Sequence record: LR746137
DNA length: 64,000 nucleotides
DNA from: Escherichia phage vB_EcoM_UP17
Direction: 5' to 3' (one strand)
Below the pieces are notes generated by a model, which saw only the letters and a program-made list of their open reading frames with translations, did no database searches and was not told the DNA's origin. Both the position numbers and the translations under genes were made by a program. How positions within the stretch are numbered: the stretch's first letter is position 1; each line of letters opens with the position of its first letter. Shown here piece after piece: positions 5,231 to 24,413 of the stretch.

Positions 5231-5443
5231 TTAATCTTCCTCCAGATCAATTTCATTATAACAATGTATGCAGAAACCATCATTGTGCATATGTTGTTCA
5301 TAAGACATATCTTTACCACAAGACCAACAACGGATATCCCCATCGTCCCATTCACGTTCTTCTTCGCCTTCAAATTCATCTGGTAGGTAAGGCATACCAA
5401 AGTAGTCTAAATCGTAACTCATATCTTCTCCTACCGAGTCCAC
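5231..5443 (-). CDS. Small zinc-ribbon-like acidic protein
   Basis: 70 aa, CxxC...CxxC, acidic termini. Confidence 0.4.
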   Translation of the reverse strand: MDSVGEDMSYDLDYFGMPYLPDEFEGEEEREWDDGDIRCWSCGKDMSYEQHMHNDGFCIHCYNEIDLEED

Positions 5444-6009
5444 TCCTTACGTTGTTCAATATGTTCGAGCATATCGTTATACAATGTTTTAAGATGTGGA
5501 ACAACTCTTTGATCTTCTGTTTCAAAAAACTTTGTAAGCTGTTCTGCTTTAGCTTTCAACCAACAAAGATGTGCTTGGAGTTCCGTATCGAAACGACCGA
5601 GTGTTATGATACGTCCTCCGATTTTAATATGGGCCTTATACTTCTTACGATCCTTCTCATAATTACATCCTACCATTTGACCTGACTTTTTTCTGTAGGC
5701 TAAAAACTTATTAAGATTTCCAGAAATCATTAAGCAAGTATCAGGGGAGTAGACTCCCCCTCCCATAAGATCCTTATCAAGTTCCGAGTTTTCCCAGTCG
5801 TCCCAAGTTTCCAACCAAGAGTAGAAGTTGGAAAACAGCTTCCACTCTTCACAAACCGTCACTCCATGGTAAACGACATCTCTTGCCTGTTGGCAAGATG
5901 AATAACACCTTCCCAACATTGCCATCCATTTCATATAAGCAGGGTGCATAACCCCTTCAGGAGATCTTGCAGTAATGCTCCCATCAAAAACACCGTGACC
6001 ATAAACCAT
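5431..6009 (-). CDS. AP2-domain DNA-binding protein, homing-endonuclease-like
   Basis: YMKWMAMLGRCY...VTVCEEW motif plus AP2-like YKAHIKIGGRIITLGRFDTELQAH; sits next to polymerase gene. Confidence 0.45.
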   Translation of the reverse strand: MVYGHGVFDGSITARSPEGVMHPAYMKWMAMLGRCYSSCQQARDVVYHGVTVCEEWKLFSNFYSWLETWDDWENSELDKDLMGGGVYSPDTCLMISGNLNKFLAYRKKSGQMVGCNYEKDRKKYKAHIKIGGRIITLGRFDTELQAHLCWLKAKAEQLTKFFETEDQRVVPHLKTLYNDMLEHIEQRKEWTR

Positions 6010-6038
6010 AAAAACTCCTTAATAAGTAATAGGTTAGA

Positions 6039-8636
6039 CTAATGGCAACTCGCCCAGGAATTACCCACATCATATCCAGCAGTAAGCTGAACATTAAGAT
6101 TGTAAAATTCTCCAGCCTTAGTAACAGCTAAGGCAGCAAGTTCACCTGCCCGACTATAGGCTGTAAACCATCCACCTTTGGGAGATTCATGAATGTTAGC
6201 CCAAATTTGTCCCGTCTCTTTTTCCTTATTATGCTTCCATTCTTCAACTTTAGCAAGGCATTCTTTATCAATTTTCTTTTGTTCTTCAGGATCGTCTACT
6301 TTCTTCCAACCTAATGATTCAGGTGAAAACCATTTGAATTCTACAAGGTTACGAGAAACTTCAAGCTGGGCTTCATCGTGATATGCAATCATTTGTTGCA
6401 CGAAGTCTTTATTCTTCCAGTCATCTTTAAAGAAGTCAACACTTAGCCCTTCTTCTTCGATCATGTCATCATAAATAACCATTGCACGTTTAGCACAGAT
6501 AACCCCACCACTTTGGAACAGAGAGTTAAGAATCGCGTGAGCAGAACGAGTAGGAACCTTACGACCGTCAATACCCAAAACATATTGTTTACCAGTCTTA
6601 ACCCAAAAATCGTTTAAACGTTCTTTAAGACGCGCCAATGGGAATGCAGCTTCCCAGAAAGCATCGAACACCAATTGACCTGTAAACTTGTCGCTACCAA
6701 TTGTTTTAGCAACCTTGTCGGCTTGTGCACCATAGGTAATACCATACTTAACAGATTTAGCAGGACTACGTTCAAATTTACGTCCAATAGTTTCAGTGAT
6801 ACGTTTTGCCATCATTGTGTGAACATCGTTAGGTTTCTCTAACAACAGAGCGTTACAATATTCGTGTGGCTCCGGCTCGTACCGCCAACAGTAGTGTGAT
6901 TCAATTTTTGCTTCCAAAGAGTCGAAGTCGTAGCCGATCTGGAAGTATTTAGGAACCTCTACACCAAACAAGTTACGCATCTCCCACCCAAACAAAGATG
7001 TGACACGAGGAATATTAGCTACAGATCTATGCTTCATACGAGAGGTTGCAGCATCACATGTAGCGGCTGGGGTAGGAATACGCCCATCCGCCCTTACTGC
7101 GGCTAAGAAACCTTTATCGTATTCTTGATCTTCTTCATCTTCTTCCCAATCAGCACCGCCACCTAAAATAGAGTTCCTACGATGCTTATACGTTAAGTAT
7201 TCTACAATCTGTGTAGCATAAGGGAATTTCTCACCTAAAGCTTGCAGGTTAGGACAGATTTCTTTTTCCTGACCTTTGGTAAAACATGGGTTAGTCAATA
7301 CTTTAAGACCGCGACCTTTACCTTTTGCTATACGCTCTTGAATCTTCCTTTCCAGGGTTTCCGGTGTGCACTCCAGATGATCACAACGATCCTGACAAAA
7401 ATTAGAAGATAGGGTTTGCTCAACGTAAGCTCGAATACCTTTCTGAAGTTCTTCCTCGCTCTTTTTAATCTTGGTGCCAGATTTAAGAGTCAAGTCTTTA
7501 TCTTTATATTCAGACGGTACCCAACCTAATCCTACAAGCCAGTTTTTAATATGGGTTGTATCGTTCAATGTTGCAGGAATGTTAGGATCACATAGAGGCT
7601 CATCTGCTGCAACTGGCAGTTTCCACTCTTTCCCCAACATAACTAACCACCAATCGCCATCCCTCTCTTCCAAATGACCATCATGTTTCTTAGCAAAATT
7701 GATCATATGGTTAGTTGGCTCTAAGTTCTTTTTAATTTGCAACTTAGGTGGAATAAAAGCCTTAAGATAACCTTTTGTTGCTGGTTTAGGTGGCAAAATA
7801 GGCTCAACAAGTAAACGAAGACGCTCCATTTCTGCATCCAAAAAAGCAAGGTTCTCTTCTGCTTGTTTCATGTTAAAAGCAAACCCACGGTGTTCCTGGC
7901 GTGTAATAATGTCTGCTACACGTTGTTCAAGTTCAAATGGACCTTCCCATTTATCATAATCACCCCATTCTTCCATAAGGTAATTATATACGCTCGTATT
8001 GGCTTTGTTGTCATAGATACAGTAATAAAGCATATCCGCAGCAAAAGTCTTAAATCGATCTTCTTCTGGAATCTCTTTACGGAAATCTATTTTTACATCA
8101 CCACCTGCTTTTCGAGAAAGTGCTGCCAAGCTATGTCCTGATTTGCCCTCAATCTTTCGATCTGGGTTTAACACTTTACTCAAAATCAAGGAGTCAATAA
8201 GTTTTACCTTATTTTTGCCCCACGTATTATATTTAACACTGTAATCTAATCCATAAAACAGTTTTGTAGCCAACCAGTCGTAGTTGATACCGTTGTGAGC
8301 CACAGCCATTTCAACCAGATATTCAGGCTTGTCTTTAAAATAACCTTCATGATTAATAAAATCTGGGAAATCTTTTAGTTGAAAATGTGTGTAATCTTGC
8401 GCCACATACTCTTTAAGAACATATGTGTATTTACCATCTGACTCTTCATAAGGACGCCCATCAAAGATGTATTTAGGGCCATCGTGGAAAGCTACTATTT
8501 CTCCTGTTTCATGGTTCTCTAAGACAATACAGTGCATTTGAAATGTGTCTTTGAGACGATAAGGACTAGCTAAATAATCAATAGTGTCATTATTCAACAA
8601 TCCGTTTGCTTCAATATCCCATGTAAACTTACTCAC
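6039..8636 (-). CDS. DNA polymerase, family A, with 3'-5' exonuclease domain
   Basis: 865 aa, Exo I-like WDIEANGL, motif B-like KYGITYGAQ, motif C-like YHDEAQLEV. Confidence 0.85.
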   Translation of the reverse strand: MSKFTWDIEANGLLNNDTIDYLASPYRLKDTFQMHCIVLENHETGEIVAFHDGPKYIFDGRPYEESDGKYTYVLKEYVAQDYTHFQLKDFPDFINHEGYFKDKPEYLVEMAVAHNGINYDWLATKLFYGLDYSVKYNTWGKNKVKLIDSLILSKVLNPDRKIEGKSGHSLAALSRKAGGDVKIDFRKEIPEEDRFKTFAADMLYYCIYDNKANTSVYNYLMEEWGDYDKWEGPFELEQRVADIITRQEHRGFAFNMKQAEENLAFLDAEMERLRLLVEPILPPKPATKGYLKAFIPPKLQIKKNLEPTNHMINFAKKHDGHLEERDGDWWLVMLGKEWKLPVAADEPLCDPNIPATLNDTTHIKNWLVGLGWVPSEYKDKDLTLKSGTKIKKSEEELQKGIRAYVEQTLSSNFCQDRCDHLECTPETLERKIQERIAKGKGRGLKVLTNPCFTKGQEKEICPNLQALGEKFPYATQIVEYLTYKHRRNSILGGGADWEEDEEDQEYDKGFLAAVRADGRIPTPAATCDAATSRMKHRSVANIPRVTSLFGWEMRNLFGVEVPKYFQIGYDFDSLEAKIESHYCWRYEPEPHEYCNALLLEKPNDVHTMMAKRITETIGRKFERSPAKSVKYGITYGAQADKVAKTIGSDKFTGQLVFDAFWEAAFPLARLKERLNDFWVKTGKQYVLGIDGRKVPTRSAHAILNSLFQSGGVICAKRAMVIYDDMIEEEGLSVDFFKDDWKNKDFVQQMIAYHDEAQLEVSRNLVEFKWFSPESLGWKKVDDPEEQKKIDKECLAKVEEWKHNKEKETGQIWANIHESPKGGWFTAYSRAGELAALAVTKAGEFYNLNVQLTAGYDVGNSWASCH

Positions 8637-9430
8637 TATTCCTCCTTTCTAATGTTCTCCAGAACCCACTGAAGTTCTTTTAAACTTAAACTTCTTACTC
8701 CCGCAGTTTTACTAGCTTCAGCTTTAAGTAACGGGTAAGCCTCAATGATACGCGTTTTAAGATCAGAAGTCAAGGCTTTTAAAAAATAGGTAGATGCTTC
8801 AGATAAAGAATCTTCTTCTGATAACACTTTACCTGCACTTGCCCCCGCTCTCCTAACGGCTATATCGTAGTCTTTACTGTTACCTAATACGAATAGTCGA
8901 TTCTCTCCTAAAACAACGGGAGAACGCTTCTCGTTGCGTTTAATCCATATCTGGAATACACAAGGAACATCCCAAGGTTCTCCATGAAGAATAAAAGACC
9001 CTTTTGGACATTCTTCTTCGTAAAGAAGATGCATATGGGGATTTAGTTTGTGTGCAAAAAAGATTTTTTGAAATGTGCGAGGCAAGATAAAACAAATACC
9101 ACCTTCGTTATCCAGCATTTCAGCACAATGGTTAAAGAACTTAATGGCAAGACTAGCATTTTTTCCAAATGGAGGATTACCGACAAAAGCAGTTACACTA
9201 CCAACAGACTCAACAGATTGAGCTAAAAAATCTGCCTCAATACAATCTTCAAACTTAGGGTCAATATCAAAAGAAGTTATGTTTTTAAAACAAGAAGAGA
9301 AAGCTCCTTCTCCCGCAGATGGTTCTACGTAGTTAGCTTCCTCTCCAAAAATTTCTTTGATCTTATCACATAAGAACCCCGCATAAGCGGGGTTAGTGTA
9401 ATATTGATCAAGTGTGTTCAACTTGCTCAA
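8636..9430 (-). CDS. DNA N6-adenine methyltransferase (M.TaqI-like)
   Basis: SAM motif EPSAGEGAF, catalytic NPPF (VGNPPFGKN). Confidence 0.65.
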   Translation of the reverse strand: MSKLNTLDQYYTNPAYAGFLCDKIKEIFGEEANYVEPSAGEGAFSSCFKNITSFDIDPKFEDCIEADFLAQSVESVGSVTAFVGNPPFGKNASLAIKFFNHCAEMLDNEGGICFILPRTFQKIFFAHKLNPHMHLLYEEECPKGSFILHGEPWDVPCVFQIWIKRNEKRSPVVLGENRLFVLGNSKDYDIAVRRAGASAGKVLSEEDSLSEASTYFLKALTSDLKTRIIEAYPLLKAEASKTAGVRSLSLKELQWVLENIRKEE

Positions 9431-9949: not shown

Positions 9950-9965
9950 AAGGGCCGAAGCCCTT
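9950..9965 (-). terminator. Stem-loop at 3' end of primase-helicase gene, possible weak terminator
   Basis: AAGGGC-CGAA-GCCCTT overlapping stop codon, short T-stretch. Confidence 0.3.
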
Positions 9966-11742
9966 AATAGTTGCTATCCGTAGGCAAATTAGCAGGATTG
10001 TTGAAATACTGCTCTTTGTCATGCAGAGTTGCAGTTCTAATGTCATAGTAAAACTGCCCTGCCGGACCAGTTTCCGAGAACTCACGGTTTTTTAGGATAA
10101 AGCAATGAGTCGTATTGCGTTCTACAGGGTCTTCAGCGGCTTTATCTCGTTCCAGAGCCAAGGTAATACCAGCACCTTTAGCCAAGAAACTACTACCCAT
10201 TGCATCGTCCTCTGTTAAGTGTTCATTGCCACCATTAGCCGATTTCTTAACGTGTGAGATGACGATAATAGTTATAGCATACTCTTTCATGATGCGCTTC
10301 AACCATGTTGCTAACTCTTCCTGGGCTTGAACATCCATACCAGAAAGCAAATCAGAATAAGGGTCGATAACAAGAATTGTTACTCCAAAATAGATGATCA
10401 TCTCCAAAACTTTTTCTTTGATAGACTCCACATCTGCTCCACGATCATCACACACATAAAAACGTGGTGATCCATCTTCTCTTTCGTAAAAATCTAGGAT
10501 TTTTTCTTTATTCTCTTCCAAGATTTGAAATTTCTCTTCCGGTGTTTTCCTGTGTAGAGGAATATGCAGGAACGAGGACAACAGGTTACGAGAATATTTC
10601 TTATAAGTTGCTTCCAAGGACAGAATACCTAGGGTATGTTCTGGGTGCGCAACAATAATATGTTTGGTGATCTCGTTCACCATCAAAGTTTTACCGATAC
10701 TGGTCTTTGCCAGGATAACTGTAATCTCTTCCTCTACTAAACCACCACCCAGCATGTTTGCAGCTACACGCATAAAAGGAGGCAAGGTAATCATCTTGGA
10801 TTCCAAGCATTCTAATGCGGCTTCATACAAGACATTAGAAGCATAAACACCTGCTGGGGTGTATAGACGAGCACTCCAAAAAGCTTTTACGAAATCTTTT
10901 GCACGACCTTCTTCCAGATACTGATTGGCATCCTTAAGATCCATCTGCATACGGTAGACTTTGTTACGAGGCAGCACCTTAACAATATTTTCAAATGCCT
11001 CATTACCTGCTTTGTCATTATCCATGCAAACAATAATCTTCTTAAATTTTTCAAAGAAAGGGTATTGTGCCTGAACTTGTTTATACATACTGGTTTCACC
11101 AGTTGTGCCACTAACTACTGCTGGGAGTTCATATTTGTTGTCCAAGTTTTCAGACAGCATTTGATAAGCTGCCAGAGCATCGTGTTCACCACCTGTAATT
11201 ACCACAGTGTGAGAACGGTCTGCAAAACGAATTTGTCCAAAAAGATCTACATCTTTACCTACTTGACCAATAGGTTTACTGAAATCTTTAGGATGAATAC
11301 GACGCTTAAAACCAACCAATTCTTTACCGATGGTAGTTGGATATAAACAACTTTCTACTACCATCTGGTCCCCTTCCTGACGGTATTCATAACGAACACC
11401 ATAGAAAGATGAAACTTTTTCTTTAATGCCTCGATAACCACGTGGGTTGGTTGATGTTTCTTGAACAATTTTACGATGAATCTGTTTATTAAATTCCGAA
11501 CCCACAATCTCCTCCTCTTCTTCTAAAACTTCACCATTTTCTCGTAACCATTCTACGCTAGGAATAGTGTATTCACACGCAAAGCACTTAGCACCTTTAT
11601 GCTCTCCATTAGAATCTAATCCATAAACCATCAGGTTATTACGAGAGCGATCCTTGCCATTTTTCATGCAGCGCGGACAACCTGTATGCCCTTCCTTGCT
11701 AAGATCAACATCAAATCCATATTTAGTTATAATGTGCGACAC
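9964..11742 (-). CDS. Primase-helicase (T7 gp4-like)
   Basis: N-terminal Zn ribbon CPRC...CFAC, TOPRIM (GGEHD...MDNDKAGN), Walker A AKTSIGKT. Confidence 0.85.
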   Translation of the reverse strand: MSHIITKYGFDVDLSKEGHTGCPRCMKNGKDRSRNNLMVYGLDSNGEHKGAKCFACEYTIPSVEWLRENGEVLEEEEEIVGSEFNKQIHRKIVQETSTNPRGYRGIKEKVSSFYGVRYEYRQEGDQMVVESCLYPTTIGKELVGFKRRIHPKDFSKPIGQVGKDVDLFGQIRFADRSHTVVITGGEHDALAAYQMLSENLDNKYELPAVVSGTTGETSMYKQVQAQYPFFEKFKKIIVCMDNDKAGNEAFENIVKVLPRNKVYRMQMDLKDANQYLEEGRAKDFVKAFWSARLYTPAGVYASNVLYEAALECLESKMITLPPFMRVAANMLGGGLVEEEITVILAKTSIGKTLMVNEITKHIIVAHPEHTLGILSLEATYKKYSRNLLSSFLHIPLHRKTPEEKFQILEENKEKILDFYEREDGSPRFYVCDDRGADVESIKEKVLEMIIYFGVTILVIDPYSDLLSGMDVQAQEELATWLKRIMKEYAITIIVISHVKKSANGGNEHLTEDDAMGSSFLAKGAGITLALERDKAAEDPVERNTTHCFILKNREFSETGPAGQFYYDIRTATLHDKEQYFNNPANLPTDSNY

Positions 11743-11754
11743 TTTGTTCTCCTG

Positions 11755-12033
11755 TTAAAATGGTTCGTTAGTCTCCATCATATATTCTGCTTCTAGTTCT
11801 TCCATGTGCTTTCTAAATTGGAAAGCAATTTCTGCTACAGTTACATTTAAATCTTTTTCAAAAACTTCTGTAGAGCCTTCGTAAAAACGAATACCGTCAA
11901 TTAAAAGCCCTCCGTGGTAATCCCAATCACTTTCACGAGAAAGCGGGTTAGGCTCTTCATAATAGTAATCCACCTCCACGACTAAGGCTTTCCCGTTACG
12001 AGTGGTGTATTCAAAATCAAAAGTGTTAATCAT
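11755..12033 (-). CDS. Hypothetical protein
   Basis: 92 aa acidic ORF. Confidence 0.45.
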   Translation of the reverse strand: MINTFDFEYTTRNGKALVVEVDYYYEEPNPLSRESDWDYHGGLLIDGIRFYEGSTEVFEKDLNVTVAEIAFQFRKHMEELEAEYMMETNEPF

Positions 12034-12977
12034 TATAGCTCCTCAAATAAAAGTCTACGACGCTCATTCAACACATCAATGTGATAATGAGTCCTGACAT
12101 ACTTAGCTAATGCTAATCCTTTCTCCATGCAAACATCGGGAGCACTTAATAAGTATTCCGTAATATCTTTCCACTCGGAAGGTGTTTCAGCAAAGAATAG
12201 CAGATCTTTAAACTCTTGTGTATGATAATTCTCACGAGGAGAACAGATCAAAGGTAAACCCTTAGCACCTGCCTCAAGAATTTTAAGATTGCTTTTTGCA
12301 TTGTTAAACACGTTATCAATCAATGGCGCAAGACTGATTTGATGACCATCGTAAGATTCCATGTAGTTGGCATATGGTCTTACACCTTCATAAACACAAG
12401 TTGGTGCTACATTTTCTCTGATCACAGACCATTCACGACTACTTAAAACTTCAGAATCCCTACGAAAACCACATATTGTAAGATCTTTACCAAAATCGGG
12501 CAAGATAGCCAAATCTTGTTTATGTGTTTCACTTCCAGCCCAGACTAATGGAGTTTTGGAGTAGCGATCACGGGTCAACACAAATTGGCCTTCATCGTAA
12601 GGAAGTCCATTAGGGATTATGTGCACATTATCATTGTATTGTGAAAGTTCAACTTGCAAAGCAGGTGTCGTAGTTGTAACAAGATCGCTGTGCTCTAAAA
12701 ACCATTTTAAATGTTCACGAATACCTGATTCAAAAATACCTTCTAACATGTGTCCTTTTGGAATAACTAAAGAGTCATCCAAATCCATAACCATTTTAAA
12801 GCCTAGGTTTTTAAGGGCTAAAAAGCCCTCTTTACCTTTTGTTGGCACCCCGTTAAAAACGAAAACGTTGTGTTTAGGTTGTGAAGAGAACTGCCTTGAG
12901 TAAGGCAGCACTACCCTATGGAAATCGCAGACACTATAATTGATTCCGTTACGATTGTCAAGAATTATTTGTCCCAT
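12033..12977 (-). CDS. Glycosyltransferase, GT-B fold (paralog A)
   Basis: IIPNGLPYDEGQF and KILEAGAKGLPLICS motifs; paralog of 12985-13932. Confidence 0.5.
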   Translation of the reverse strand: MGQIILDNRNGINYSVCDFHRVVLPYSRQFSSQPKHNVFVFNGVPTKGKEGFLALKNLGFKMVMDLDDSLVIPKGHMLEGIFESGIREHLKWFLEHSDLVTTTTPALQVELSQYNDNVHIIPNGLPYDEGQFVLTRDRYSKTPLVWAGSETHKQDLAILPDFGKDLTICGFRRDSEVLSSREWSVIRENVAPTCVYEGVRPYANYMESYDGHQISLAPLIDNVFNNAKSNLKILEAGAKGLPLICSPRENYHTQEFKDLLFFAETPSEWKDITEYLLSAPDVCMEKGLALAKYVRTHYHIDVLNERRRLLFEEL

Positions 12978-12984
12978 ACTTCAC

Positions 12985-13932
12985 CTACAAACTTTCAATA
13001 ACCTGGCGTCGCAACTCGTTTGCATCTGCCAGATTATAATGTGTTCGAACATGTTCAGCCAAGAACAAGCCACGATCTTCCCGATAGTTTGGATTGCGAA
13101 GAAGCTTAACAATTTCGTAATGCCATTCTGCTTTATTCTCTGCGTAAGCAACAGCGCGAGCATCTACAGGGTTAAAATAAGGTAATACCTTAGAACAAAC
13201 AATTGGAATACCTTTTGCTCCAGCTTCCAGGATTTTGAGATTACTTTTACAATTATTAAAATCATTATCTACCAAAGGAGCTATAGCAATAGCATGACTT
13301 TCGTAAACACTCATGTAATTATCTAAATCTTTTACAGCGGCTTTATATTTGGCATTTGGTAAATTTCTGCGAATCTTAATCCACTCTTGTCCTGTGATGC
13401 TTTGTGATGCTTCATATCCCGCAATAGTAAGAAGTTCATCATCGAAAGTATTAGAGACTAGTCGTAAGTCTGGTTCGTGACTAGCACCGCCAGCCCATAC
13501 AACAGGGGTACCGGATGAACGATCATTTGACAAAGTGAATTGTCCACTATCAAAAGGAAGTGCATTTCGGATCACAACAACATTCCTATTTAAGTGACGG
13601 ATCTTATATGCCAAATATTCCGTGGTTACAATAACCACATCCGCAAGCTTAACCATAGCTACAATAGCATGAGTGTTTGACTCGTATAGACTTGCTAAAT
13701 AATGTTCTGGATTGAGTTGGTAGAAATCATCTAAATCTACAACAATCTTAACACCTTGACGTTTCAAAGATAAAACGTATTCTGCACCTTTAGAGTGGAT
13801 ACGGTTAAACACAACAACATCTTTCTTAGGTTGAATATTATTGTTGTTAAAGGGCATAACAATACGATGATAGTCACAACCGCTATGAGGTTTTGCATCA
13901 ATTTTTAGTTTAGACCATTTTTTATTTGACAT
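12985..13932 (-). CDS. Glycosyltransferase, GT-B fold (paralog B)
   Basis: VIRNALPFDSGQF and KILEAGAKGIPIVCS motifs. Confidence 0.5.
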   Translation of the reverse strand: MSNKKWSKLKIDAKPHSGCDYHRIVMPFNNNNIQPKKDVVVFNRIHSKGAEYVLSLKRQGVKIVVDLDDFYQLNPEHYLASLYESNTHAIVAMVKLADVVIVTTEYLAYKIRHLNRNVVVIRNALPFDSGQFTLSNDRSSGTPVVWAGGASHEPDLRLVSNTFDDELLTIAGYEASQSITGQEWIKIRRNLPNAKYKAAVKDLDNYMSVYESHAIAIAPLVDNDFNNCKSNLKILEAGAKGIPIVCSKVLPYFNPVDARAVAYAENKAEWHYEIVKLLRNPNYREDRGLFLAEHVRTHYNLADANELRRQVIESL

Positions 13933-14605
13933 GTGCTAGTGCCTCCTCATAGGAAATTCGGATTTTCCCATTTTTAATATCCTCTAAAGATGCTTTATAT
14001 TCTTCCCAGTTAATCCCAATAGCAGCTTCTTTCTCTTCTTTTGTCAGATTAGCAAAAGGCATAGGATTGTTTCCAAAAACATCGTCTGGGTGGATATAAG
14101 CCATGATACGAAGTGGACAAGGTGTTGCCTGAATACCATGATTCAAACCAGCAGCTTGCAAACGGTGTCCCCATTCAGCATCTTCAAAACCATAACCGTG
14201 AGTGTAAGGACGGAAATAACCCATCTTCTCAACAACGGCACGAGAATACATTGCAAATTGACACATTGCAAGTTCCCAGAGAATAACTTCTCCTTTGCTT
14301 CCAACAACTTTATCTTTGAAATACTCCGGCATACCAAAGAAATCCCATCCTCCAGAGACAGCTTGATCTACAAAGTATGTTTCCCATCCCTCCATGACTG
14401 GGTAGCAATCGTCGTCAAAAATAAACCAATAATCATAACCTTCTTCATAAAACTGGTGCATAAGTTCATTCCTGGCATAAGCTACACCTTTACGATCTGG
14501 ATCGTTGAATACTCGAAAATCTGCACGTGGATCTGTTACAAGGTAGTCTTTAAGTGGACGGACACCTACAGTGATAACACCCACTCCGATTTTAATATTT
14601 TCCAT
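13922..14605 (-). CDS. Glycosyltransferase-like, GT-A fold
   Basis: DxD-type FIFDDDCYP, GYGFEDAEWGHR. Confidence 0.4.
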   Translation of the reverse strand: MENIKIGVGVITVGVRPLKDYLVTDPRADFRVFNDPDRKGVAYARNELMHQFYEEGYDYWFIFDDDCYPVMEGWETYFVDQAVSGGWDFFGMPEYFKDKVVGSKGEVILWELAMCQFAMYSRAVVEKMGYFRPYTHGYGFEDAEWGHRLQAAGLNHGIQATPCPLRIMAYIHPDDVFGNNPMPFANLTKEEKEAAIGINWEEYKASLEDIKNGKIRISYEEALAHVK

Positions 14606-14613
14606 TTTCTCTC

Positions 14614-15177
14614 CTAAATAGTTTTACTGTGATCATGACAGTGTAATAAATGATGTATAGACCGTTGAGGATTTGTTTGACCTAATCTGTAAATGTGAAA
14701 CAGATACATTCCCCGCATCAATCCTAACCTCTTTCCTTTTTCATGTAAAGTGCGAGAGAAAATTAAGTCGAATTGGATAGATTTTTCTTCGAAAGGAATT
14801 TCATTCCACAATGATTTTCTAAAAAGCAAAAAGAAACCTGCCAGAGGTGTTCCGAAAGGAACTTCTTCAACATTTACTTTATGATATTCTCTTGCAATCT
14901 TAGCATATTCTATATGGTTTAGAATATCGGGATCATCGTTAATTTGGTTAGAGAAAAGCTGATAACCACTACCTAACCTGTTACAAGTTGCACCTATTAC
15001 ATCAAAAGGCGGGTTTGACATAACAAGCTCTTCAAGCAAAGATGGTTGATCAGGTAGGAGGAACATCGTATCGGTATCTCTTAAACACACCCAACTATCA
15101 TCTGGAAGAACGGCAATGGCTTCATTGATAGCCTTGCCGATATTTCCTGTCAGATAGGGAGTAATATAATAAATCAT
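14614..15177 (-). CDS. Glycosyltransferase-like, GT-A fold (tentative)
   Basis: LRDTDTMF DxD-like motif. Confidence 0.3.
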   Translation of the reverse strand: MIYYITPYLTGNIGKAINEAIAVLPDDSWVCLRDTDTMFLLPDQPSLLEELVMSNPPFDVIGATCNRLGSGYQLFSNQINDDPDILNHIEYAKIAREYHKVNVEEVPFGTPLAGFFLLFRKSLWNEIPFEEKSIQFDLIFSRTLHEKGKRLGLMRGMYLFHIYRLGQTNPQRSIHHLLHCHDHSKTI

Positions 15178-15193
15178 TCTCCCCTCCGTTATA

Positions 15194-15385
15194 TTAACTG
15201 TCGGCTACAATCCCACGTTTAATCATTTCCTGTTGGATCTGGATCACACGATCTCGTGCTTCCATGTATTCTTTAAAAGATTCTTGGAGATGATCACGAG
15301 CTACATCCCGTAGTTTAATCAGTTTGTCGTTTGTCACTTCTTGAAGAGAGATCTCGCCAGTTTCATTGGTCCCAAGCGTTTTCAT
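15194..15385 (-). CDS. Hypothetical small protein
   Basis: 63 aa ORF. Confidence 0.4.
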   Translation of the reverse strand: MKTLGTNETGEISLQEVTNDKLIKLRDVARDHLQESFKEYMEARDRVIQIQQEMIKRGIVADS

Positions 15386-15641
15386 TTACAACCTCCTTAA
15401 TAGCTACTGCACAGTTCTTACAAATACATTGACCTTTGTTCTTAGAAATTTCAATGTAAGGTTCATTTTCGTTTTCTCCGCGTCGTGAGTCGTATATTAC
15501 TGTATTGAAGCAGACAACGCAAATGTTTTTAATAACGACATATTTTTGCACTTTTTGTTTAGTGCGAAAATTGACTTCAATGACTTCTCCCATCAGTGAA
15601 TCTCCCCTAAAATGTTGTTTTGAGACATTACTGCGGAGCAT
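15363..15641 (-). CDS. Small Cys-rich zinc-finger-like protein
   Basis: CVVCF...CICKNC. Confidence 0.4.
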   Translation of the reverse strand: MLRSNVSKQHFRGDSLMGEVIEVNFRTKQKVQKYVVIKNICVVCFNTVIYDSRRGENENEPYIEISKNKGQCICKNCAVAIKEVVNENAWDQ

Positions 15642-15940
15642 TCTACAGCATCATGAGTCCTTGCAAAACGCTCCCACAACACAGCATCTACTTTAAGGAC
15701 CATACAAGGATAAATACTGTCGTTAATCATGTCAATGCTATATTTATCTACATCCTTTTCATCTTCCATAAACAGAGTAGCATATGCTTCCAAATGTTTA
15801 CGGGTGTAGTATACATCCTCTTCGGTAAGACCAACAACCAGGTAACTTGCTACAACAACAGTATTATCTTCTTGCATTTTAACTCCCCTTTGGTAGATAG
15901 AAACCATGCACTTTATCTCGATAAACAAGACGCATATCAC
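15593..15940 (-). CDS. Hypothetical protein
   Basis: 115 aa ORF; start may lie downstream of the overlap. Confidence 0.4.
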   Translation of the reverse strand: MICVLFIEIKCMVSIYQRGVKMQEDNTVVVASYLVVGLTEEDVYYTRKHLEAYATLFMEDEKDVDKYSIDMINDSIYPCMVLKVDAVLWERFARTHDAVECSAVMSQNNILGEIH

Positions 15941-16400
15941 GTTCCCAGTGTGTCCTTATATTCCGTTTCTTGAAGTATAGCGCACCTTTAGTAACATCTA
16001 AAACAGATCGCAATTCAGGAAAATGTTTCTCTAAATAAAGTAAACGCTCCGCTATTGCTTTTGCTTCCTGCCACTTATCTTTCTCTGTTACGTTAAAAGT
16101 TTTCGCATATGAGAATTGCCCTTTCTGGAACAAGACTCCTCTGACTGTGTTAGGGAAATAAGCATCATTTCTTCTGTTGATCACTACATTCCCAACGGCA
16201 TTCATTCCTTTTTTACCCAGACCGCGACCTTCTGCGTAAATTGCACAAGCTAATAGAATTTTATCATTATATTGCTTTGTACATTTGTGAACTACTTTAG
16301 CGGTTTTTACGTTTGCAGCTTCGGCTTTCGCCATAACAGGTGTAAATGTAAAAGCAGTTAAGGATAGTAACGCAACTGTTACAAAGTTTTTTATCAGCAA
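15879..16400 (-). CDS. Secreted cell wall hydrolase (SleB-like)
   Basis: N-terminal signal peptide, CAIYAEGRG...VGNVVINR motif. Confidence 0.55.
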   Translation of the reverse strand: MLIKNFVTVALLSLTAFTFTPVMAKAEAANVKTAKVVHKCTKQYNDKILLACAIYAEGRGLGKKGMNAVGNVVINRRNDAYFPNTVRGVLFQKGQFSYAKTFNVTEKDKWQEAKAIAERLLYLEKHFPELRSVLDVTKGALYFKKRNIRTHWERDMRLVYRDKVHGFYLPKGS

Positions 16401-16500: not shown

Positions 16501-17103
16501 TTATGGACATTCATACCATTCTTTTTTACCACCGAAGGCCATCACCACATCGCAAATATCCAGACCAGCTTTACCTACACCATATGCTTTCAGCTTCCAT
16601 TCCCCATCTTCACGAACCAGCGAAGCCACGTGGCAGATTGTGTTGCCAGCTACTTCAGGAGCCAGGAAGTCAAAATCCAGAATTTCCACATTGCGCTCGG
16701 AGTCGAAGATTTTAAGCATACCTTCAGAAGCATGACCAAAACGTTTCAGACCTGTATCATCATCAATGGTCAGAACAAAGGCAATCTCTTGTGCATCAGG
16801 AGAGATTTTAGCCAGAGTAATATCAATCTGCTCCATGCTGCCAGTTCCATCACGAACATCGTCACCAGCGAAGGTAGAACGTTCAGGATCAAACTTGTTA
16901 GCATAGCAAACCAGATGACGTGCAGACAGCATTTCAGGATTGCCAGCGGCATTATGACGACAAACCAGTGCACTTACATCCAGATCCAGTTTAGAATCAG
17001 ATTTCCAAGAGAATTCCAGGCGCAGTTCTTTCAGAGCCGGAGCAACTTTCTTCAGGGAAATTTTTTCGCTAGAACCTTTTTTCAGGGAAATTTTATCAGT
17101 CAT
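16501..17103 (-). CDS. terD: TerD-family protein
   Basis: 200 aa, ISLKK N-terminus, LDLDVSA, Ca-binding-like GDDVRDGTGSMEQI. Confidence 0.7.
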   Translation of the reverse strand: MTDKISLKKGSSEKISLKKVAPALKELRLEFSWKSDSKLDLDVSALVCRHNAAGNPEMLSARHLVCYANKFDPERSTFAGDDVRDGTGSMEQIDITLAKISPDAQEIAFVLTIDDDTGLKRFGHASEGMLKIFDSERNVEILDFDFLAPEVAGNTICHVASLVREDGEWKLKAYGVGKAGLDICDVVMAFGGKKEWYECP

Positions 17104-17118
17104 CTTTTGTCTCCTCTA

Positions 17119-17388
17119 TTATTTAAGTGTAATACCAGTTACAGTCAATTCTACTTCCAAAAGCTTAGATGTGTTTTGGATTGATACTAATTGTGCATGA
17201 TGGTTTAGTTCTACAGCAGAATAATCATTTTCCCCATCATCTACTTTTAAATAAACAATGATTTCACTAAGGTCTAAACCATTTTCGTCAAATGCATTTT
17301 CATAGACGAAAGTATCTCCTACATCCAAATCTTTAATGGTAAGGCATCGTTTATTTACTTTTTGCTCATCAATTTCGAAGTTTAACAC
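17119..17388 (-). CDS. Hypothetical protein, paralog of 18410-18688
   Basis: Shared DLDVGxTF...GLD...TxITLK with 18410 ORF. Confidence 0.45.
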   Translation of the reverse strand: MLNFEIDEQKVNKRCLTIKDLDVGDTFVYENAFDENGLDLSEIIVYLKVDDGENDYSAVELNHHAQLVSIQNTSKLLEVELTVTGITLK

Positions 17389-17617
17389 TTCTTCCTCCTA
17401 ATGTTATCTCCGGTTTGTATATACGAAGAATTATAGCATTTTCATTTTCTTTGTCAACCCATTCTTCATAATCGGGCCATACATGAATCTCTACTCTACT
17501 TACAATATCTTCCATTCGCACAGTCCCAATGAAATACTCTTTGAGACTGCGCATAATGAAAGCTTCTCTCTCGCGCCAATAATTTTCTACGACTTGAGAG
17601 GCAAGCTCGTCGATCAT
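17369..17617 (-). CDS. Hypothetical protein
   Basis: 82 aa ORF. Confidence 0.4.
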   Translation of the reverse strand: MIDELASQVVENYWREREAFIMRSLKEYFIGTVRMEDIVSRVEIHVWPDYEEWVDKENENAIILRIYKPEITLGGRSVKLRN

Positions 17618-18408
17618 TTTTTAGCACCTACTTTAACAACCCACTCTCCGAACTCTTCAGATAAGAGTTTGTCATAAAGCTCTGAATCTGTCAAGTCTAA
17701 ATCTTTAATGCCAATAAAACCAACATTATCATAAGCATTTGCCAGTTCTTTCAGGAAGCCAAACTTCTCATTACCAACGCCAACCATGAACCAATAAATA
17801 GGTTTATTCTTATTCTCTTCAATAAGACGACGAACAGCACTAGGATCACCATTCTCACCATCCGTTTGGAAGAATACAACACCAGGGGTAACGTCAGCAC
17901 CTGGTTCAGATACAGCTACAACCTTTTCACGCTCTACAGATACTGTTTCAGTTTTACCAAGCAGACGATTAAAGAAGCCTTTCTTTGGAGCCTCCTCTTG
18001 TACCACTTGTTTAGTGGTAATATATTTGGTAACAGTGCCAAAATACTCGTCGTAGATATCTGCCATTACAGGGGCGTAGTTTGTTCCACCTCCGATACGA
18101 ACATTACGCATACATTTACCAACATAATCATCGTAAACGTCTGCTGTTGCTGGGGTAAGCTCTTGAGAACTCGTATTGAAGGCCCACATATCAATTTGTT
18201 CATTATCGTCGAACAGCATACCAAAAGGAAGCAGTTTACCTACAAAATCACTCACTACCCCACTAGAATATAGACCATGCATACTACCAGAAATATCTAG
18301 AGCACATGCTACACGAAGAACAATCTTACCTTCATTCAGGTTCTTATTCTTTTTCAGAGAGAAAGCAAGGTTTTCTTGACGTTTTTTCAGGCTGATTTTC
18401 TCGGACAT
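17614..18408 (-). CDS. vWA-domain protein (TerY-like)
   Basis: MIDAS motif DISGSM, ISLKK N-terminus like TerD. Confidence 0.55.
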   Translation of the reverse strand: MSEKISLKKRQENLAFSLKKNKNLNEGKIVLRVACALDISGSMHGLYSSGVVSDFVGKLLPFGMLFDDNEQIDMWAFNTSSQELTPATADVYDDYVGKCMRNVRIGGGTNYAPVMADIYDEYFGTVTKYITTKQVVQEEAPKKGFFNRLLGKTETVSVEREKVVAVSEPGADVTPGVVFFQTDGENGDPSAVRRLIEENKNKPIYWFMVGVGNEKFGFLKELANAYDNVGFIGIKDLDLTDSELYDKLLSEEFGEWVVKVGAKK

Positions 18409-18409
18409 A

Positions 18410-18688
18410 TTATTTCTCCTTCTTAAGTGTAATATTGGTAACTTCTAAATCTACTTCCACCATATTTGTATCTGGTGGGATGCAATGAGTATAGCCTCGT
18501 TGTGCTAGTGATCCATTAATACAGATCGCACTGTTTGTGGAATTTTTAATGAACACCAAGTTACGGTAGGTATCCAACCCTGCGTCTTCATAGGCATCAT
18601 AATACATGAATGTGGCCCCTACGTCAAGATCTTCGAAAGCAATAGGTAAATCCTGACCTTTTTCTTCTTGAATATTGAATCTAAACAC
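18410..18688 (-). CDS. Hypothetical protein, paralog of 17119-17388 (start revised to GTG)
   Basis: GTG at 18688 sits 5 nt after GAGGAGG and removes the 74 nt overlap with upstream gene. Confidence 0.4.
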   Translation of the reverse strand: MFRFNIQEEKGQDLPIAFEDLDVGATFMYYDAYEDAGLDTYRNLVFIKNSTNSAICINGSLAQRGYTHCIPPDTNMVEVDLEVTNITLKKEK

Positions 18689-19244
18689 GCATACCTCCTC
18701 TACCAATTTTGAAGCCCAAATCGTAAGCTTCCTTAGTGATCTTTTGTAACTCACTTATAGGAAGTGTTACAAGAGGATCATCTTCTTCAATTTCCATCTT
18801 GTCATCTTCTGTTTCAATGAGAGTATTATGCACTTTGTGATAAGGGTTGTCAACACGTTTAAACTTATTCTTTTCTGTGCTGAAAAAACAATCTGGATCT
18901 TCTTCACCATCACCCCAACCTTGATTAGGATCTCCGTCAGATTGTTCTGTAGGGATTTCACCTGTAAAGTACTCTTCCAGCACCATAGCAATACCGTCCC
19001 TTGGATTTGAGGAATGCATTAAATCACAAACCTTACCCCAATCCATAGCCCATTCGAACCGTTCACGAACGCCATTTTCATCCTCTTTTCCAGAGAAAAC
19101 ACAACCATAACTATCATAGTTGCCATACATCTCTTCAATAACAACACCGTCTTTCAAAAGAAAGAGGTAGCAAGGTGATCCGTCGAAAGAAGTAGAAAGG
19201 GCAGCTTTGCCCGATTCTTTGCACAAAAAACTAAAACAACCCAT
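18681..19244 (-). CDS. Hypothetical protein
   Basis: 187 aa, acidic C-terminal half. Confidence 0.45.
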   Translation of the reverse strand: MGCFSFLCKESGKAALSTSFDGSPCYLFLLKDGVVIEEMYGNYDSYGCVFSGKEDENGVRERFEWAMDWGKVCDLMHSSNPRDGIAMVLEEYFTGEIPTEQSDGDPNQGWGDGEEDPDCFFSTEKNKFKRVDNPYHKVHNTLIETEDDKMEIEEDDPLVTLPISELQKITKEAYDLGFKIGRGGMRV

Positions 19245-19441
19245 TACAAACCCTCCTTCAGATTATCAAGAGCTACAGTGGTTTCACAAAATTCTCCATA
19301 AGCTTTATGATGTTCCAGAAAAGCTTCGGGTCCACCCCAGTCATTATCTTGTGTATTCCAGCCATCAATAAAAGCATCTTCAATGATTGTGATCAGTTCC
19401 TGTCGAGTCAACGTAATGGTATCAGGCTTTGGATTATGCAT
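19244..19441 (-). CDS. Hypothetical small protein
   Basis: 65 aa ORF. Confidence 0.4.
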   Translation of the reverse strand: MHNPKPDTITLTRQELITIIEDAFIDGWNTQDNDWGGPEAFLEHHKAYGEFCETTVALDNLKEGL

Positions 19442-19607
19442 CTTCTTCCTCCTCTAAAATATGAAACCCATAGCTACAATAGTCCTGAAAGGTTTCGTGT
19501 GCAAGATCTTCTATATCCTCTTGAGACATATCATCTTCAATTTCGATATCCACAACCTCATTGCATCCACACCAAGCAGTTTCAATATTCACCCGTAATA
19601 TTTTCAT
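19434..19607 (-). CDS. Small acidic ORF (57 aa), not in ORF track
   Basis: ATG 19607 overlaps upstream stop (TAATG), GGAGGAG SD, hand-translated codon by codon. Confidence 0.35.
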   Translation of the reverse strand: MKILRVNIETAWCGCNEVVDIEIEDDMSQEDIEDLAHETFQDYCSYGFHILEEEEDA

Positions 19608-19804
19608 TACTCCTCCTCCTCATTGAAGTCAATATCTGCAAGGAGTTGGAATTTACGGAAGTTACGACAACCTTCATAAATATAACAATCACGACAAACT
19701 GCTAGAACACTTGGGGGATATATGCCTCCCATCGGTGCGAATCGTTTTTCGTCATCATAACGGACACCAATGTCTTCATCAATTATATAGATACGGATTC
19801 TCAT
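19607..19804 (-). CDS. Small Cys-rich protein
   Basis: 65 aa ORF. Confidence 0.4.
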   Translation of the reverse strand: MRIRIYIIDEDIGVRYDDEKRFAPMGGIYPPSVLAVCRDCYIYEGCRNFRKFQLLADIDFNEEEE

Positions 19805-20913
19805 TTACCAAGCCCTCGTTTCACAGCAGCTACCATCCCGTCTTCCAGAGATTGAACTTCATTAATATAATCAACACGAGCAGCACGGGCTTCCGTATTG
19901 ATGCGGTTAGTTTCTTCCAACATCTTAACCAAGTTTTCCTGATCGTGACGCAGAGTTTCAATATCCAACACTTGACGGTTAGCCAGTGCTGCTGCTTCGA
20001 TCTGATTCTGTGTAGCAAGATCGCTACCCAGTTTAATTGCCAGGTTAAATTCATCAAGAACGTTATTCTGCGTCTCTGCTGCTTTCATTTGACGTAAGCT
20101 CTCGATATACATTGAGAAGTTAGCAGAGTAAGCAGGAATAACATTATTTACTATGTTACGCGCAGATCGCATTAAGCTTGCAGAAACTTTTTGCATACCT
20201 TGTACACGCGGTCCCATTTGGACACACAGTAGGCGCAATGCCTTTAAATCTGCAATACGAATCTCCAGAAGATCCAAAGTGTCTCGGATCACTTGTCGCT
20301 GTTCTACTGCATCTTCTGGAAGAGCAGCCAAAGCTTGTTCTTCTTTTTCATAGGTTGCTGTTAGAAGCTGCATATCTCGGTTCAAACTTGCAGCATATTG
20401 TCCAATAGCTTGATGCAGTTTTTCAAGATATACCAAGGAATCTTCTTCTTTGCGAATATCCATTTGAAGGTTCTTTACCAACTCTTCAATACGGTTATTA
20501 ACATTATCAAACTCCCCAAACAGGTCTTCTTTCATACCCATAACTTTTTTAATGAGTTTAGTAATACCTTTGCTTTGTTTAATAGAGTTTGGATCAAGTT
20601 GTTTTGCCTGTTTAATCAAAGCTGTGAGTCGTTCACTCATCTGATCGCCTTGATTACTACGTTGATGTTTTAATACCTCGGCATTCAAGGAACGCAAGGT
20701 TGTTCCTGCCTCTGCCCCAATCTCTTCGATCTCTTGTCGGGTCATAGAAGGCAAAACTGGAACGTCTTGTGGTGCCGCTGGTGCATAAACAGGACTGGCA
20801 TCTAACACGCTTGGAGCGAATACAGATTTACTTGCATCTGTTGTTGCAGCAAATACGCTCATTTCAGGCTTCTTCTGACCACCAGTAGCTGCTTTTAAAA
20901 ATGGACTTGTCAT
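19801..20913 (-). CDS. TelA-like coiled-coil protein (tentative)
   Basis: 370 aa, size and coiled-coil character fit TelA; sits with TerD/TerC. Confidence 0.4.
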   Translation of the reverse strand: MTSPFLKAATGGQKKPEMSVFAATTDASKSVFAPSVLDASPVYAPAAPQDVPVLPSMTRQEIEEIGAEAGTTLRSLNAEVLKHQRSNQGDQMSERLTALIKQAKQLDPNSIKQSKGITKLIKKVMGMKEDLFGEFDNVNNRIEELVKNLQMDIRKEEDSLVYLEKLHQAIGQYAASLNRDMQLLTATYEKEEQALAALPEDAVEQRQVIRDTLDLLEIRIADLKALRLLCVQMGPRVQGMQKVSASLMRSARNIVNNVIPAYSANFSMYIESLRQMKAAETQNNVLDEFNLAIKLGSDLATQNQIEAAALANRQVLDIETLRHDQENLVKMLEETNRINTEARAARVDYINEVQSLEDGMVAAVKRGLGK

Positions 20914-21500
20914 TCTTCATTCTCCTCTTCTGCATCTCTTATATATGGTGAAACACCGTACTCTTTAGCTACTTTAACCCAATCGTCCCATTTATACAAC
21001 CATAATTTTCCTTCGGTCCCTTCTTTATCTGATTTCAACCACATATTCGGTTGCTTACCTGGGTACATGCGATTAGGTTTACGATTATAACCTCTAACAC
21101 ATCTTGTCGCAAACCTATCTACCAGAACAAGAACATATTTATATTCGTGGTTCAACGGCTCTTTGGAAGTGGCTTTAGGATTAGCCCCTAATTCTGCTGC
21201 CAGTTTTTGCCAATGAGCACCGTGCCTACTAAACTTACCCATACAACCATCAATAGCATGAGCAATTTCGTGCTTCATTGTATCCACGATCATATCTCTT
21301 GTGGAGTTCTTATGCAAGTGCCAATTTACAACAACAATTTTATCTCGGTAGTTGCACCAACCGAAAGAGTTATTCACTTTGTTTCTAACACAAGCTTTAT
21401 ATCCTGCTTCACGTAACATGTTGTAGTAAACAGGAAAATCTTCTTTTATTTCCTGCATCACTTCCCACCACAAGAGTTGCAAGTCTCTCTCGGTATGCAT
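20910..21500 (-). CDS. SprT-like zinc metallopeptidase
   Basis: HExxH (MKHEIAHAIDG). Confidence 0.5.
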   Translation of the reverse strand: MHTERDLQLLWWEVMQEIKEDFPVYYNMLREAGYKACVRNKVNNSFGWCNYRDKIVVVNWHLHKNSTRDMIVDTMKHEIAHAIDGCMGKFSRHGAHWQKLAAELGANPKATSKEPLNHEYKYVLVLVDRFATRCVRGYNRKPNRMYPGKQPNMWLKSDKEGTEGKLWLYKWDDWVKVAKEYGVSPYIRDAEEENEE

Positions 21501-21503
21501 AAC

Positions 21504-22097: not shown

Positions 22098-22111
22098 TGT
22101 TTTTCTCCTTA

Positions 22112-22549: not shown

Positions 22550-22736
22550 ATTTGCTTTCCTCGTTTTGGCTATTAATACATCTGTGTTTGAAATCTCCAG
22601 AGAAGCAATAAAGTTGCTCTCCATCTCGGTATAAACTCACTTTACTGCCGTTGATTACGCTTGTCAATACAAAAATTACAACAAACAACCCTATTGCAAA
22701 ACAAATATTTTCAAACACAATCAACAAGTATTTCAT
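22491..22736 (-). CDS. Small membrane protein (tentative)
   Basis: 81 aa with hydrophobic helix; overlaps lipoprotein start. Confidence 0.3.
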   Translation of the reverse strand: MKYLLIVFENICFAIGLFVVIFVLTSVINGSKVSLYRDGEQLYCFSGDFKHRCINSQNEESKYEKTSPDFNWLYLFNSLRG

Positions 22737-24407: not shown

Positions 24408-24413
24408 CTCCTC

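Follow-up and report, generated by a model that had tools for sequence, protein, structure and literature searches.

Four glycosyltransferase genes of a phAPEC8-like Escherichia phage include a portable module that may build a rhamnose-containing glycan on an acceptor other than bulk DNA

The alpha- and beta-glucosyltransferases of phage T4 are GT-B enzymes that act on 5-hydroxymethylcytosine (5hmC) in DNA, an acceptor made by a dCMP hydroxymethylase of the same system. All known phage DNA glycosylation begins from 5hmC, 5-hydroxymethyluracil (5hmU) or 5-hydroxycytosine (5hoC), which arise via ThyA homologs (PMC13326640). Viral glycosyltransferases (GTs) may also act on virion proteins: the mycobacteriophages Che8 and Rita carry capsid glycans, according to the mention of Freeman et al. 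2023 in PMC11256854, and in the chlorovirus PBCV-1 the major capsid protein receives an oligosaccharide from soluble GTs that are expressed early and include rhamnosyltransferases (PMC9614988). Here, we describe a block of four GT genes, ORF1 to ORF4, at positions 12033-15177 (minus strand) of a 64,000-nucleotide stretch of Escherichia phage vB_EcoM_UP17 (record LR746137), hereafter referred to as the window. The original prediction for this locus, made from the sequence alone, was that the block may serve to hypermodify the phage DNA. We tentatively prefer the view that it encodes a soluble pathway for a short glycan that contains rhamnose and is attached to an acceptor other than DNA, virion proteins being the most plausible choice.

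The window belongs to a phAPEC8-like myovirus (Phapecoctavirus, a genus of the Stephanstirmvirinae subfamily). Over positions 11700-15700 it shares 99.3% identity with phage TSP7_1 and 99.1% with phAPEC8, some 64 records reach 95% identity or more in this region, and phAPEC8 is collinear with the window from about 98,150 across the record end to about 12,200. The products gp071-gp074 of phAPEC8 are already named "glycosyltransferase" in RefSeq, and the identity of the GT genes is itself therefore known; newly described here are the portable ORF4/ORF3/GT-B module, its natural fusions, its adhesin-linked bacterial homologs and its co-occurrence with rmlC/rmlD. In the order of transcription, from ORF4 via ORF3 and ORF2 to ORF1, the genes are the following:

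14614-15177, minus strand: ORF4, 187 amino acids (aa), minimal GT-A enzyme and first in the block, ortholog of phAPEC8 gp071
13922-14605, minus strand: ORF3, 227 aa, probable compact GT2-type GT-A, conserved partner of GT-B, ortholog of gp072
12985-13932, minus strand: ORF2, 315 aa, GT-B fold, GT4-like, ortholog of gp073
12033-12977, minus strand: ORF1, 314 aa, second GT-B paralog, ortholog of gp074

A gap of 8 nt separates ORF4 from ORF3, ORF3 and ORF2 overlap by 11 nt, the gap between ORF2 and ORF1 is 7 nt, and each of the four genes is preceded by a Shine-Dalgarno-like sequence.

Fold and profile assignments placed all four ORFs among the glycosyltransferases. Together, these results support the conclusion that ORF1-4 are soluble enzymes, two of them GT4-like GT-B paralogs and the other two mutually unrelated GT-A enzymes; a hydrophobic segment long enough to span a membrane is present in none of the four (maximum 19-residue Kyte-Doolittle mean, 1.65). 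The genes at 12033-12977 and 12985-13932, originally read as tandem GT-B-like paralogs, are just that: ORF1 and ORF2 are 41% identical, have two Rossmann-like domains each in GT-B topology, and share invariant residues, all 25 of the 25 family-invariant residues checked being present in ORF1. ORF1 matches phrog_7162 (E 1.9e-145) and Pfam Glyco_trans_1_2 (25.2 bits, cut-off 25), and the scores of ORF2 for the Pfam Glyco_trans_1 family, 22.8 and 20.4 bits, are under the cut-offs of 27 and 25. The C-terminal nucleotide-sugar-binding motif K229-S-N-L-K-x-L-E236-x-G-x-x-G241, with its conserved Glu, is invariant across 36 members of the GT-B family, and we infer that it has a catalytic role. The nearest structural neighbours of the GT-B include PglA/PglH-type enzymes, PimA, WaaG, WaaB, TarM and WbnH; the adhesin-glycosylating GT-Bs GtfA, SdgB and Gtf3-like, as well as BshA, the selenosugar synthase SenB and a tetrahydrobiopterin glucosyltransferase, are also among the structural neighbours found. 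The T4 alpha- and beta-glucosyltransferases rank 19th and 36th among the neighbours of ORF2, and the nearest viral structures are uncharacterised GT1 proteins of phages and giant viruses. Profile searches with the three families (GT-B, ORF3 and ORF4) against the sequences of the PDB gave nothing significant.

The description of the remaining two genes as GT-A-like ORFs with DxD motifs also holds, in the case of ORF4 by virtue of its GT-A Rossmann-like fold with a DxD motif (structural neighbours include SpsA, RmlT, TarP and TarS), and in that of ORF3, as judged from its sequence, by GT2 homology and the invariant D64-D65-D66. ORF3 belongs to phrog_2456 (E 1.2e-78), and its family has the invariant stretches F63-D64-D65-D66 and Y138-G139-x-E141-D142. 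Its direct Pfam matches, to TAGT (19.5 bits, cut-off 27.5), GT2 (13.3 bits) and Glyco_transf_7C, are all sub-threshold; the TAGT match, like one to phrog_842 (E 7.6e-6), is confined to the DxD region, and a sub-threshold TAGT match occurs in 17 of the 18 ORF3-family members. A profile search with the family, covering 1.8 billion representatives, gave 1,523 relatives. Remote relatives of 245-285 aa were found at E 1e-21 to 1e-29, of which 27 out of 28 passed Pfam GT2 (best E 2.1e-17), with a weak TAGT match in only two. Because its remote kin pass GT2, ORF3 is probably a compact GT2-type GT-A. ORF3 does resemble the TAGT/JGT enzymes and the T6 beta-glucosyl-HMC-alpha-glucosyltransferase (Ggt) in being a small GT-A with a DxD motif and in the weak profile matches; however, it scores under the cut-off of Pfam PF20691, and no TET/JBP or C5-methylase partner was seen. 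Membership in the TAGT family was considered and rejected on account of the GT2 matches of the remote kin and of the comparison with T6 Ggt, to which the ORF3 family is unrelated (hhalign probability 0.5%). The corresponding value for the ORF4 family is 0.4%, and a profile comparison of the ORF3 and ORF4 families shows no relation between the two.

Searching 50,697 phage records by tblastn, we found ORF2 in 146 and ORF4 in 141 of them. The carriers are Phapecoctavirus, the phi92-like Justusliebigvirus (66-72% identity) and Klebsiella relatives, with a few Streptomyces, Arthrobacter and Cellulophaga phages also among the matches, and the GT block is conserved throughout the Stephanstirmvirinae. 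Outside this subfamily, ORF3-like and GT-B genes are conserved as direct neighbours: the gene directly upstream of the GT-B gene in prophages is 43% (Pseudomonas silvicola) or 38% (Enterobacter huaxiensis) identical to ORF3. We sampled 79 viral contigs out of a set of at least 572 matches. In at least 32 of these loci (40 when clustered by BLAST) the GT-B gene has an ORF3-like gene directly beside it, and in 16 the pair is joined by an ORF4-like gene. The gene orders seen are ORF4-like/ORF3-like/GT-B, ORF3-like/GT-B/ORF4-like and ORF4-like/ORF3-like/GT-B/GT-B, the tandem GT-B pair occurring, among the 79 loci, solely in Stephanstirmvirinae-like ones. Two proteins of 550 aa each (P0215 and P0216) consist of an ORF3-like domain (residues 1-217) fused to a GT-B domain of the ORF1/ORF2 family (residues ~275-498), and the existence of such natural fusions is independent evidence that the enzymes of the module act together. 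We propose that ORF4, ORF3 and one GT-B constitute an ancient portable phage module, with a second GT-B in the Stephanstirmvirinae. Other ORF3-like proteins, of 392-680 aa, have tandem GT-A domains or extra unannotated domains. A block of the Stephanstirmvirinae type is also present in the records of the Campylobacter phages A145, A110a, B15 and C3, Acinetobacter phage vB_AbaM_ABPW7 and Pseudomonas phage PsgM04F; the DNA of ABPW7 is 98.3% identical to the window, the GT-B proteins of A145 and PsgM04F are 72% and 79% identical, and the host labels of these records are probably wrong or derive from contamination.

Five independent contexts in temperate phages have the cassette flanked by the lysis genes on one side and by the terminase, portal and capsid genes, with which it is co-oriented, on the other. 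A location directly upstream of terminase, portal and capsid genes was seen in Pseudomonas, Enterobacter and Serratia prophages as well as in metagenomic phages, and in the Enterobacter prophage a sugar-nucleotide epimerase/dehydratase gene is directly upstream of the cassette. The large terminase falls inside the sampled flanks in 44 of the 79 loci. Phages of 30-35 kb that form a separate lineage have the cassette between their replication genes and the gene for the large terminase, sometimes adjoined by a gene for a hexapeptide acetyltransferase or a ParB-DNA methylase (the latter a neighbour in 12 of the 79 loci); Pfam and PHROG searches with the recurrent unknown neighbours of this lineage returned only TerL, ERF, DnaA_C, Lin1244_N and these same two proteins. 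In Streptomyces phage Zuko, the homolog is preceded by a UDP-glucose dehydrogenase gene according to RefSeq (NAD-dependent epimerase/dehydratase family in Pfam) and followed by the terminase, and in Cellulophaga phage phi12:1 an ORF4-like domain in gp40 has the portal on one side and the prohead protease and capsid on the other, with a Methyltransf_24 gene adjoining. In the window, the GT block lies in the replication region and not, as in these relatives, with structural genes.

Only one context is clearly non-phage, an island conserved on the chromosomes of Burkholderia dolosa and of two Trinickia species, in which an inverse-autotransporter adhesin gene is followed by a gene for a conserved protein of 555-571 aa and then by the GT-B homolog. 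By its gene neighbourhood, this island resembles adhesin-plus-glycosyltransferase operons. HMW1C and TibC are examples of GTs that glycosylate adhesins. The link between the block and cytoplasmic adhesin GT-Bs such as GtfA/GtfB and SdgB is one of gene neighbourhood only. Two conserved unknown genes on the opposite strand also belong to the island (L007, 3025-8440; L010, 3742-10026; L101, L103 and L104). The 555-571-aa protein is 34% identical between the genera, and its assignment as a GT-A was rejected; the island in Trinickia symbiotica (L010) is surrounded by the housekeeping genes queA, purF, cvpA, folC and accD.

The complement of sugar-nucleotide genes points to dTDP-L-rhamnose as a donor for the block. 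RmlA, RmlB, RmlC and RmlD of phAPEC8 all score over the NCBIfam equivalog cut-offs; their genes (37131-40409 of the phAPEC8 record, L002) are about 70 kb from the GT block, outside the window, and Phapecoctavirus as well as Justusliebigvirus phages have the rml region together with the block. In ESCO37, Mt1B1_P17, WPEC1, ZCKP1, ECO340P2, ABPW7 and Klebsiella phage KP13-26, only the rmlD-rmlC part was matched; rmlA and rmlB are thus dispensable, and rmlC and rmlD are always retained. Since the last two survive where the first two have been lost, dTDP-L-rhamnose appears to be the wanted product. Host enzymes for enterobacterial common antigen (ECA) or O-antigen, such as RffG/RffH in E. coli, could provide the intermediate dTDP-4-keto-6-deoxyglucose.

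The proposal that the block hypermodifies DNA is not supported. The accompanying remark that the window shows no hydroxymethylase is borne out and extends to all six-frame ORFs of the complete phAPEC8 genome: a phmmer search with T4 gp42 against these ORFs and the window found no ThyA homolog at E<=10, and the 79 related viral loci contain none either. The sole gene resembling a thymidylate synthase is of the ThyX type (Pfam Thy1, 33.3 bits); it is annotated as "thymidylate synthase" in phAPEC8 and is noted in its record to resemble genes in PVP-SE1 and rV5. Base-hydroxylase, TET/JBP and transglycosylase domains are absent from 20 larger proteins (19 of the window plus phAPEC8 ThyX, gp156), the domain scan having covered larger proteins and not every small ORF, and TET/JBP is not found in the RefSeq annotation either. 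None of ORF1-4 matches the T4 alpha- or beta-glucosyltransferase by phmmer at E<=10, the similarity being one of generic fold; their isoelectric points (5.7, 8.5, 4.9 and 6.0 for ORF1 to ORF4, against 9.05 for the T4 beta- and 6.1 for the alpha-enzyme) do not discriminate. Thus, the T4 system differs from the block in the sequence of its GTs and in having a hydroxymethylase. The arabinosyl-5-hydroxycytosine systems of RB69, DLP3 and HY126 (PMC13326640) differ in their flavin-dependent ThyA homolog and their restriction-resistant DNA, both of which are absent here.

The restriction evidence, which concerns close relatives carrying the block and not the exact phage of the window, also argues against bulk modification of the DNA. 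In a collection of phages of avian pathogenic E. coli, HincII restriction fragment length polymorphism typed all isolates but three Tevenvirinae (PMC10269720). It follows from the success of this typing that the Phapecoctavirus phages ESCO25 and ESCO37 and the Justusliebigvirus phages ESCO8, 9 and 32 are cut at GTYRAC, a site that includes all four bases. The phi92-like phages of the BASEL collection are "exceptionally susceptible" to restriction-modification (RM) systems (PMC8594841). These phages have the block at about 71% identity, and at least JohannJBalmer also has rmlA-D. A further relative is phiPau, which we take to be Justusliebigvirus Paula. This phage is BREX-sensitive by about 7 logs and outside the class hit by the modification-dependent BrxU (PMC8565348). 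The papers on BME3 and ZCKP1 hold no data on DNA modification or virion glycans.

Bulk DNA hypermodification by the block is therefore unlikely. It should be noted that rhamnosylation of the DNA has already been put forward in print as a speculation (PMC7552041; PMC10844046). In a form suited to the above data, the GTs would add rhamnose-containing sugars to the phage DNA sparsely or at specific sequences, without a hydroxylated pyrimidine made by a ThyA homolog, as protection against restriction. The location among replication genes with a DNA methyltransferase nearby, the weak TAGT matches of the ORF3 family and the pre-terminase position of the relatives' cassettes, sometimes with a ParB-DNA methylase, would fit such a role, and a universal acceptor would account for the portability of the module among unrelated phages. 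However, the lack of a ThyA homolog and of the domains searched for, the sensitivity to HincII, RM and BREX, the GT2 kinship of ORF3 and its lack of relation to T6 Ggt, and the fact that the T4 enzymes are not close structural neighbours make this very improbable. A specific variant, in which an unrecognised ThyA-independent nucleic-acid system rhamnosylates particular sequences near packaging too rarely to block HincII or RM, has in our opinion hardly any chance of being correct. The assumption of DNA rhamnosylation has no genomic basis and contradicts the restriction data, and it should not be used to explain host range.

With respect to our preferred reading, glycosylation of virion proteins, the block would be one translationally coupled operon encoding four soluble cytoplasmic GTs, which, acting in sequence, could assemble a short oligosaccharide with a maximum of about four sugars. 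One or more of these would probably be L-rhamnose, derived from dTDP-L-rhamnose made by the phage enzymes RmlC and RmlD (plus RmlA and RmlB in most isolates), and the remaining ones may come from host UDP-sugars. The acceptor would not be bulk DNA but most likely at least one phage structural protein, modified in the cytoplasm either ahead of virion assembly or while it is under way, and the outcome would be a glycan coat like those of Che8 and PBCV-1. A protein acceptor is hinted at by the adhesin-linked homologs in Burkholderiaceae and by GtfA, SdgB and Gtf3-like among the structural neighbours, and the proximity of the relatives' cassettes to head genes supports the choice of virion proteins. 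As in the virion glycosylation of mycobacteriophages, there are several phage GTs and no DNA-precursor pathway, and related cassettes lie by head genes; in contrast to those systems, the block has a Gram-negative host and a dedicated dTDP-rhamnose pathway. PBCV-1 (A064R and others) resembles it in having soluble cytoplasmic GTs, among them GT-A rhamnosyltransferase domains of about 200 aa, and virus-encoded synthesis of a rhamnose nucleotide.

Several observations weigh against this view. We found no literature report of glycosylated virion proteins in the Stephanstirmvirinae, and the GT-B family shows no relation at the BLAST level to mycobacteriophage GTs (bridging tblastn, Zuko gp5), so that the support comes from context and analogy. 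The block is in the replication or early-middle region, some 45 kb (phAPEC8 coordinates) separating it from the head genes, and the pre-terminase position of the cassettes elsewhere is also typical for DNA-modification genes, as with the ParB-DNA methylase at 12 loci. For the cassette to work across phages with unrelated capsids, a protein acceptor would have to be loosely defined. In addition, most GT4 and GT2 structural neighbours use lipid- or glycan-linked acceptors.

In a rival reading, the soluble GTs would work at the inner face of the membrane on units linked to undecaprenyl pyrophosphate, on the lipid A-core or on intermediates of ECA, to which they would attach sugars that include rhamnose, and/or they would draw dTDP-4-keto-6-deoxyglucose away from ECA. 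Such remodelling of the host envelope, which we regard as possible but doubtful, would mask or deplete the phage receptors, resulting in superinfection exclusion or in fewer progeny lost on debris. It agrees with the PglA/PglH-type enzymes, PimA, WaaG, WaaB, TarM and WbnH as neighbours of the GT-Bs and with SpsA, RmlT, TarP and TarS as those of ORF4, and the isolates with only rmlC and rmlD imply that the host ECA/O-antigen precursor pool is drawn upon. Moreover, the receptors of this phage group are ECA and the outer core of lipopolysaccharide (PMC8594841), and the authors of the ZCKP1 study proposed surface modification against superinfection (PMC6141743). However, the block has neither membrane segments nor a flippase, polymerase, ligase or Gtr-type partner, the cassette of the temperate relatives is found among late genes by the terminase and not in a position for lysogenic conversion, and envelope turnover late in the lytic cycle is limited. 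Seroconversion of the Gtr type in particular was rejected, given that ORF1-4 have no hydrophobic segment, the phage is lytic, and GtrA, GtrB or GtrC neighbours are absent.

There is also a small chance that the target is a host protein or a small molecule, glycosylated for the purpose of host takeover or anti-defence; candidates would be a nucleoside-like metabolite from the phosphoribosyltransferase (PRTase)/HAD module of the Ter cluster described below, an immune signal or a host factor. A long minus-strand transcription unit is probably common to the block and the TerD/TerF/TelA/TerC/PRTase/HAD genes, and BshA, SenB and the tetrahydrobiopterin glucosyltransferase, as GT examples with protein or metabolite targets, are among the structural neighbours. 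Nevertheless, many phages carry the module without Ter genes, three or four sequential GTs would be unusual for the inactivation of one target, and we found no specific homology to any GT known to act as a toxin or in anti-defence.

The host range of phapecoctaviruses and phi92-like phages is very broad, and their use in therapy and biocontrol has repeatedly been proposed. If their particles do bear a rhamnose glycan of phage origin, this would influence how antibodies recognise them, how they are cleared and how stable they are, as shown in mycobacteriophages, and it would be the first virion-glycosylation system among phages of Gram-negative bacteria. Together with its adhesin-linked relatives in bacteria, the module of three genes constitutes a defined, testable family in which to search for the acceptor.

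The genes surrounding the block are as follows:

8636-9430, minus strand: gamma-class N6-adenine DNA methyltransferase (NPPF), flank outside the module, from motifs, phrog_799 and RefSeq
9964-11742, minus strand: primase-helicase, flank outside the module, from the RefSeq annotation of phAPEC8 gp076
11755-12033, minus strand: small ORF, 92 aa, ortholog of gp075, phrog_4240 (unknown function, E 6.4e-33)
15879-16400, minus strand: SleB-type cell-wall hydrolase, flank outside the module, Pfam Hydrolase_2 (63.9 bits)

ORFs and annotation thus agree with the originally described arrangement of four minus-strand GT genes with the primase-helicase on one side and a cell-wall hydrolase, which has a signal-like sequence at its N-terminus, on the other. 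The nearby NPPF adenine methyltransferase was likewise recognised correctly, having EPSAGEGAF at residue 36, NPPF at residue 85, a match to the DNA methyltransferase family phrog_799 (E 1.1e-10) and a phAPEC8 counterpart named 'putative DNA N6-adenine methyltransferase' in RefSeq. The start of the 92-aa ORF overlaps the stop of ORF1 by 1 nt (junction TAATGA), and its membership in the glycosyltransferase pathway is uncertain. Because no terminator-like site was found on the minus strand between 16400 and 11742, from the hydrolase gene to the primase-helicase gene, the block is likely co-transcribed with replisome genes, the primase-helicase gene probably being co-transcribed downstream of it. 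Promoter-like sites show no excess in the window, 55 being present against 43.2 expected by chance (standard deviation 6.8).

Directly beyond the hydrolase gene lies a complete Ter-type cluster (16501-26983, minus strand), which includes:

16501-17103, minus strand: TerD (98.9 bits)
17614-18408, minus strand: vWA-TerF-like (130 bits)
19801-20913, minus strand: TelA (115.6 bits)
20910-21500, minus strand: SprT-like
23126-24100, minus strand: TerC membrane protein (138.3 bits)
24414-24887, minus strand: Macro domain (at the cut-off)
24900-25727, minus strand: ComF-like PRTase (142.5 bits)
25720-26376, minus strand: HAD hydrolase (weak)

The cluster presumably resembles the Ter-dependent stress-response system with a nucleoside-like-metabolite module (Anantharaman, Iyer and Aravind 2012). 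Within the small-ORF region that precedes the TerD gene, a promoter-like site (17457-17430, minus strand) has a perfect sigma-70 consensus, with TTGACA, a 16-nt spacer, TATAAT and an extended-10 TG, and a strong terminator-like hairpin (23119-23102) directly follows the TerC gene.

Between the polymerase gene and the genes upstream of it, a 192-aa ORF (5431-6009, minus strand) lies in a segment missing from phAPEC8 (blastn gap 5433-6028); it has no Pfam match and, by eye, the look of an AP2/HNH-type homing endonuclease. In phAPEC8, a 160-aa 'DNA methyltransferase' is annotated at 66487-66966 (L014, 16487-16966), between the portal gene and the head-decoration and major-head genes, and may be misannotated since its position and size are odd. 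The product of a plus-strand gene of the window (41852-43054), 400 aa long, combines three CapR homology domains with DUF723 and matches MUG113 weakly; in phAPEC8 it is called 'endonuclease'. Finally, the GC skew, negative up to about 38 kb, is positive beyond that point, where minus-strand genes give way to plus-strand ones, and the change marks a point of divergent transcription.

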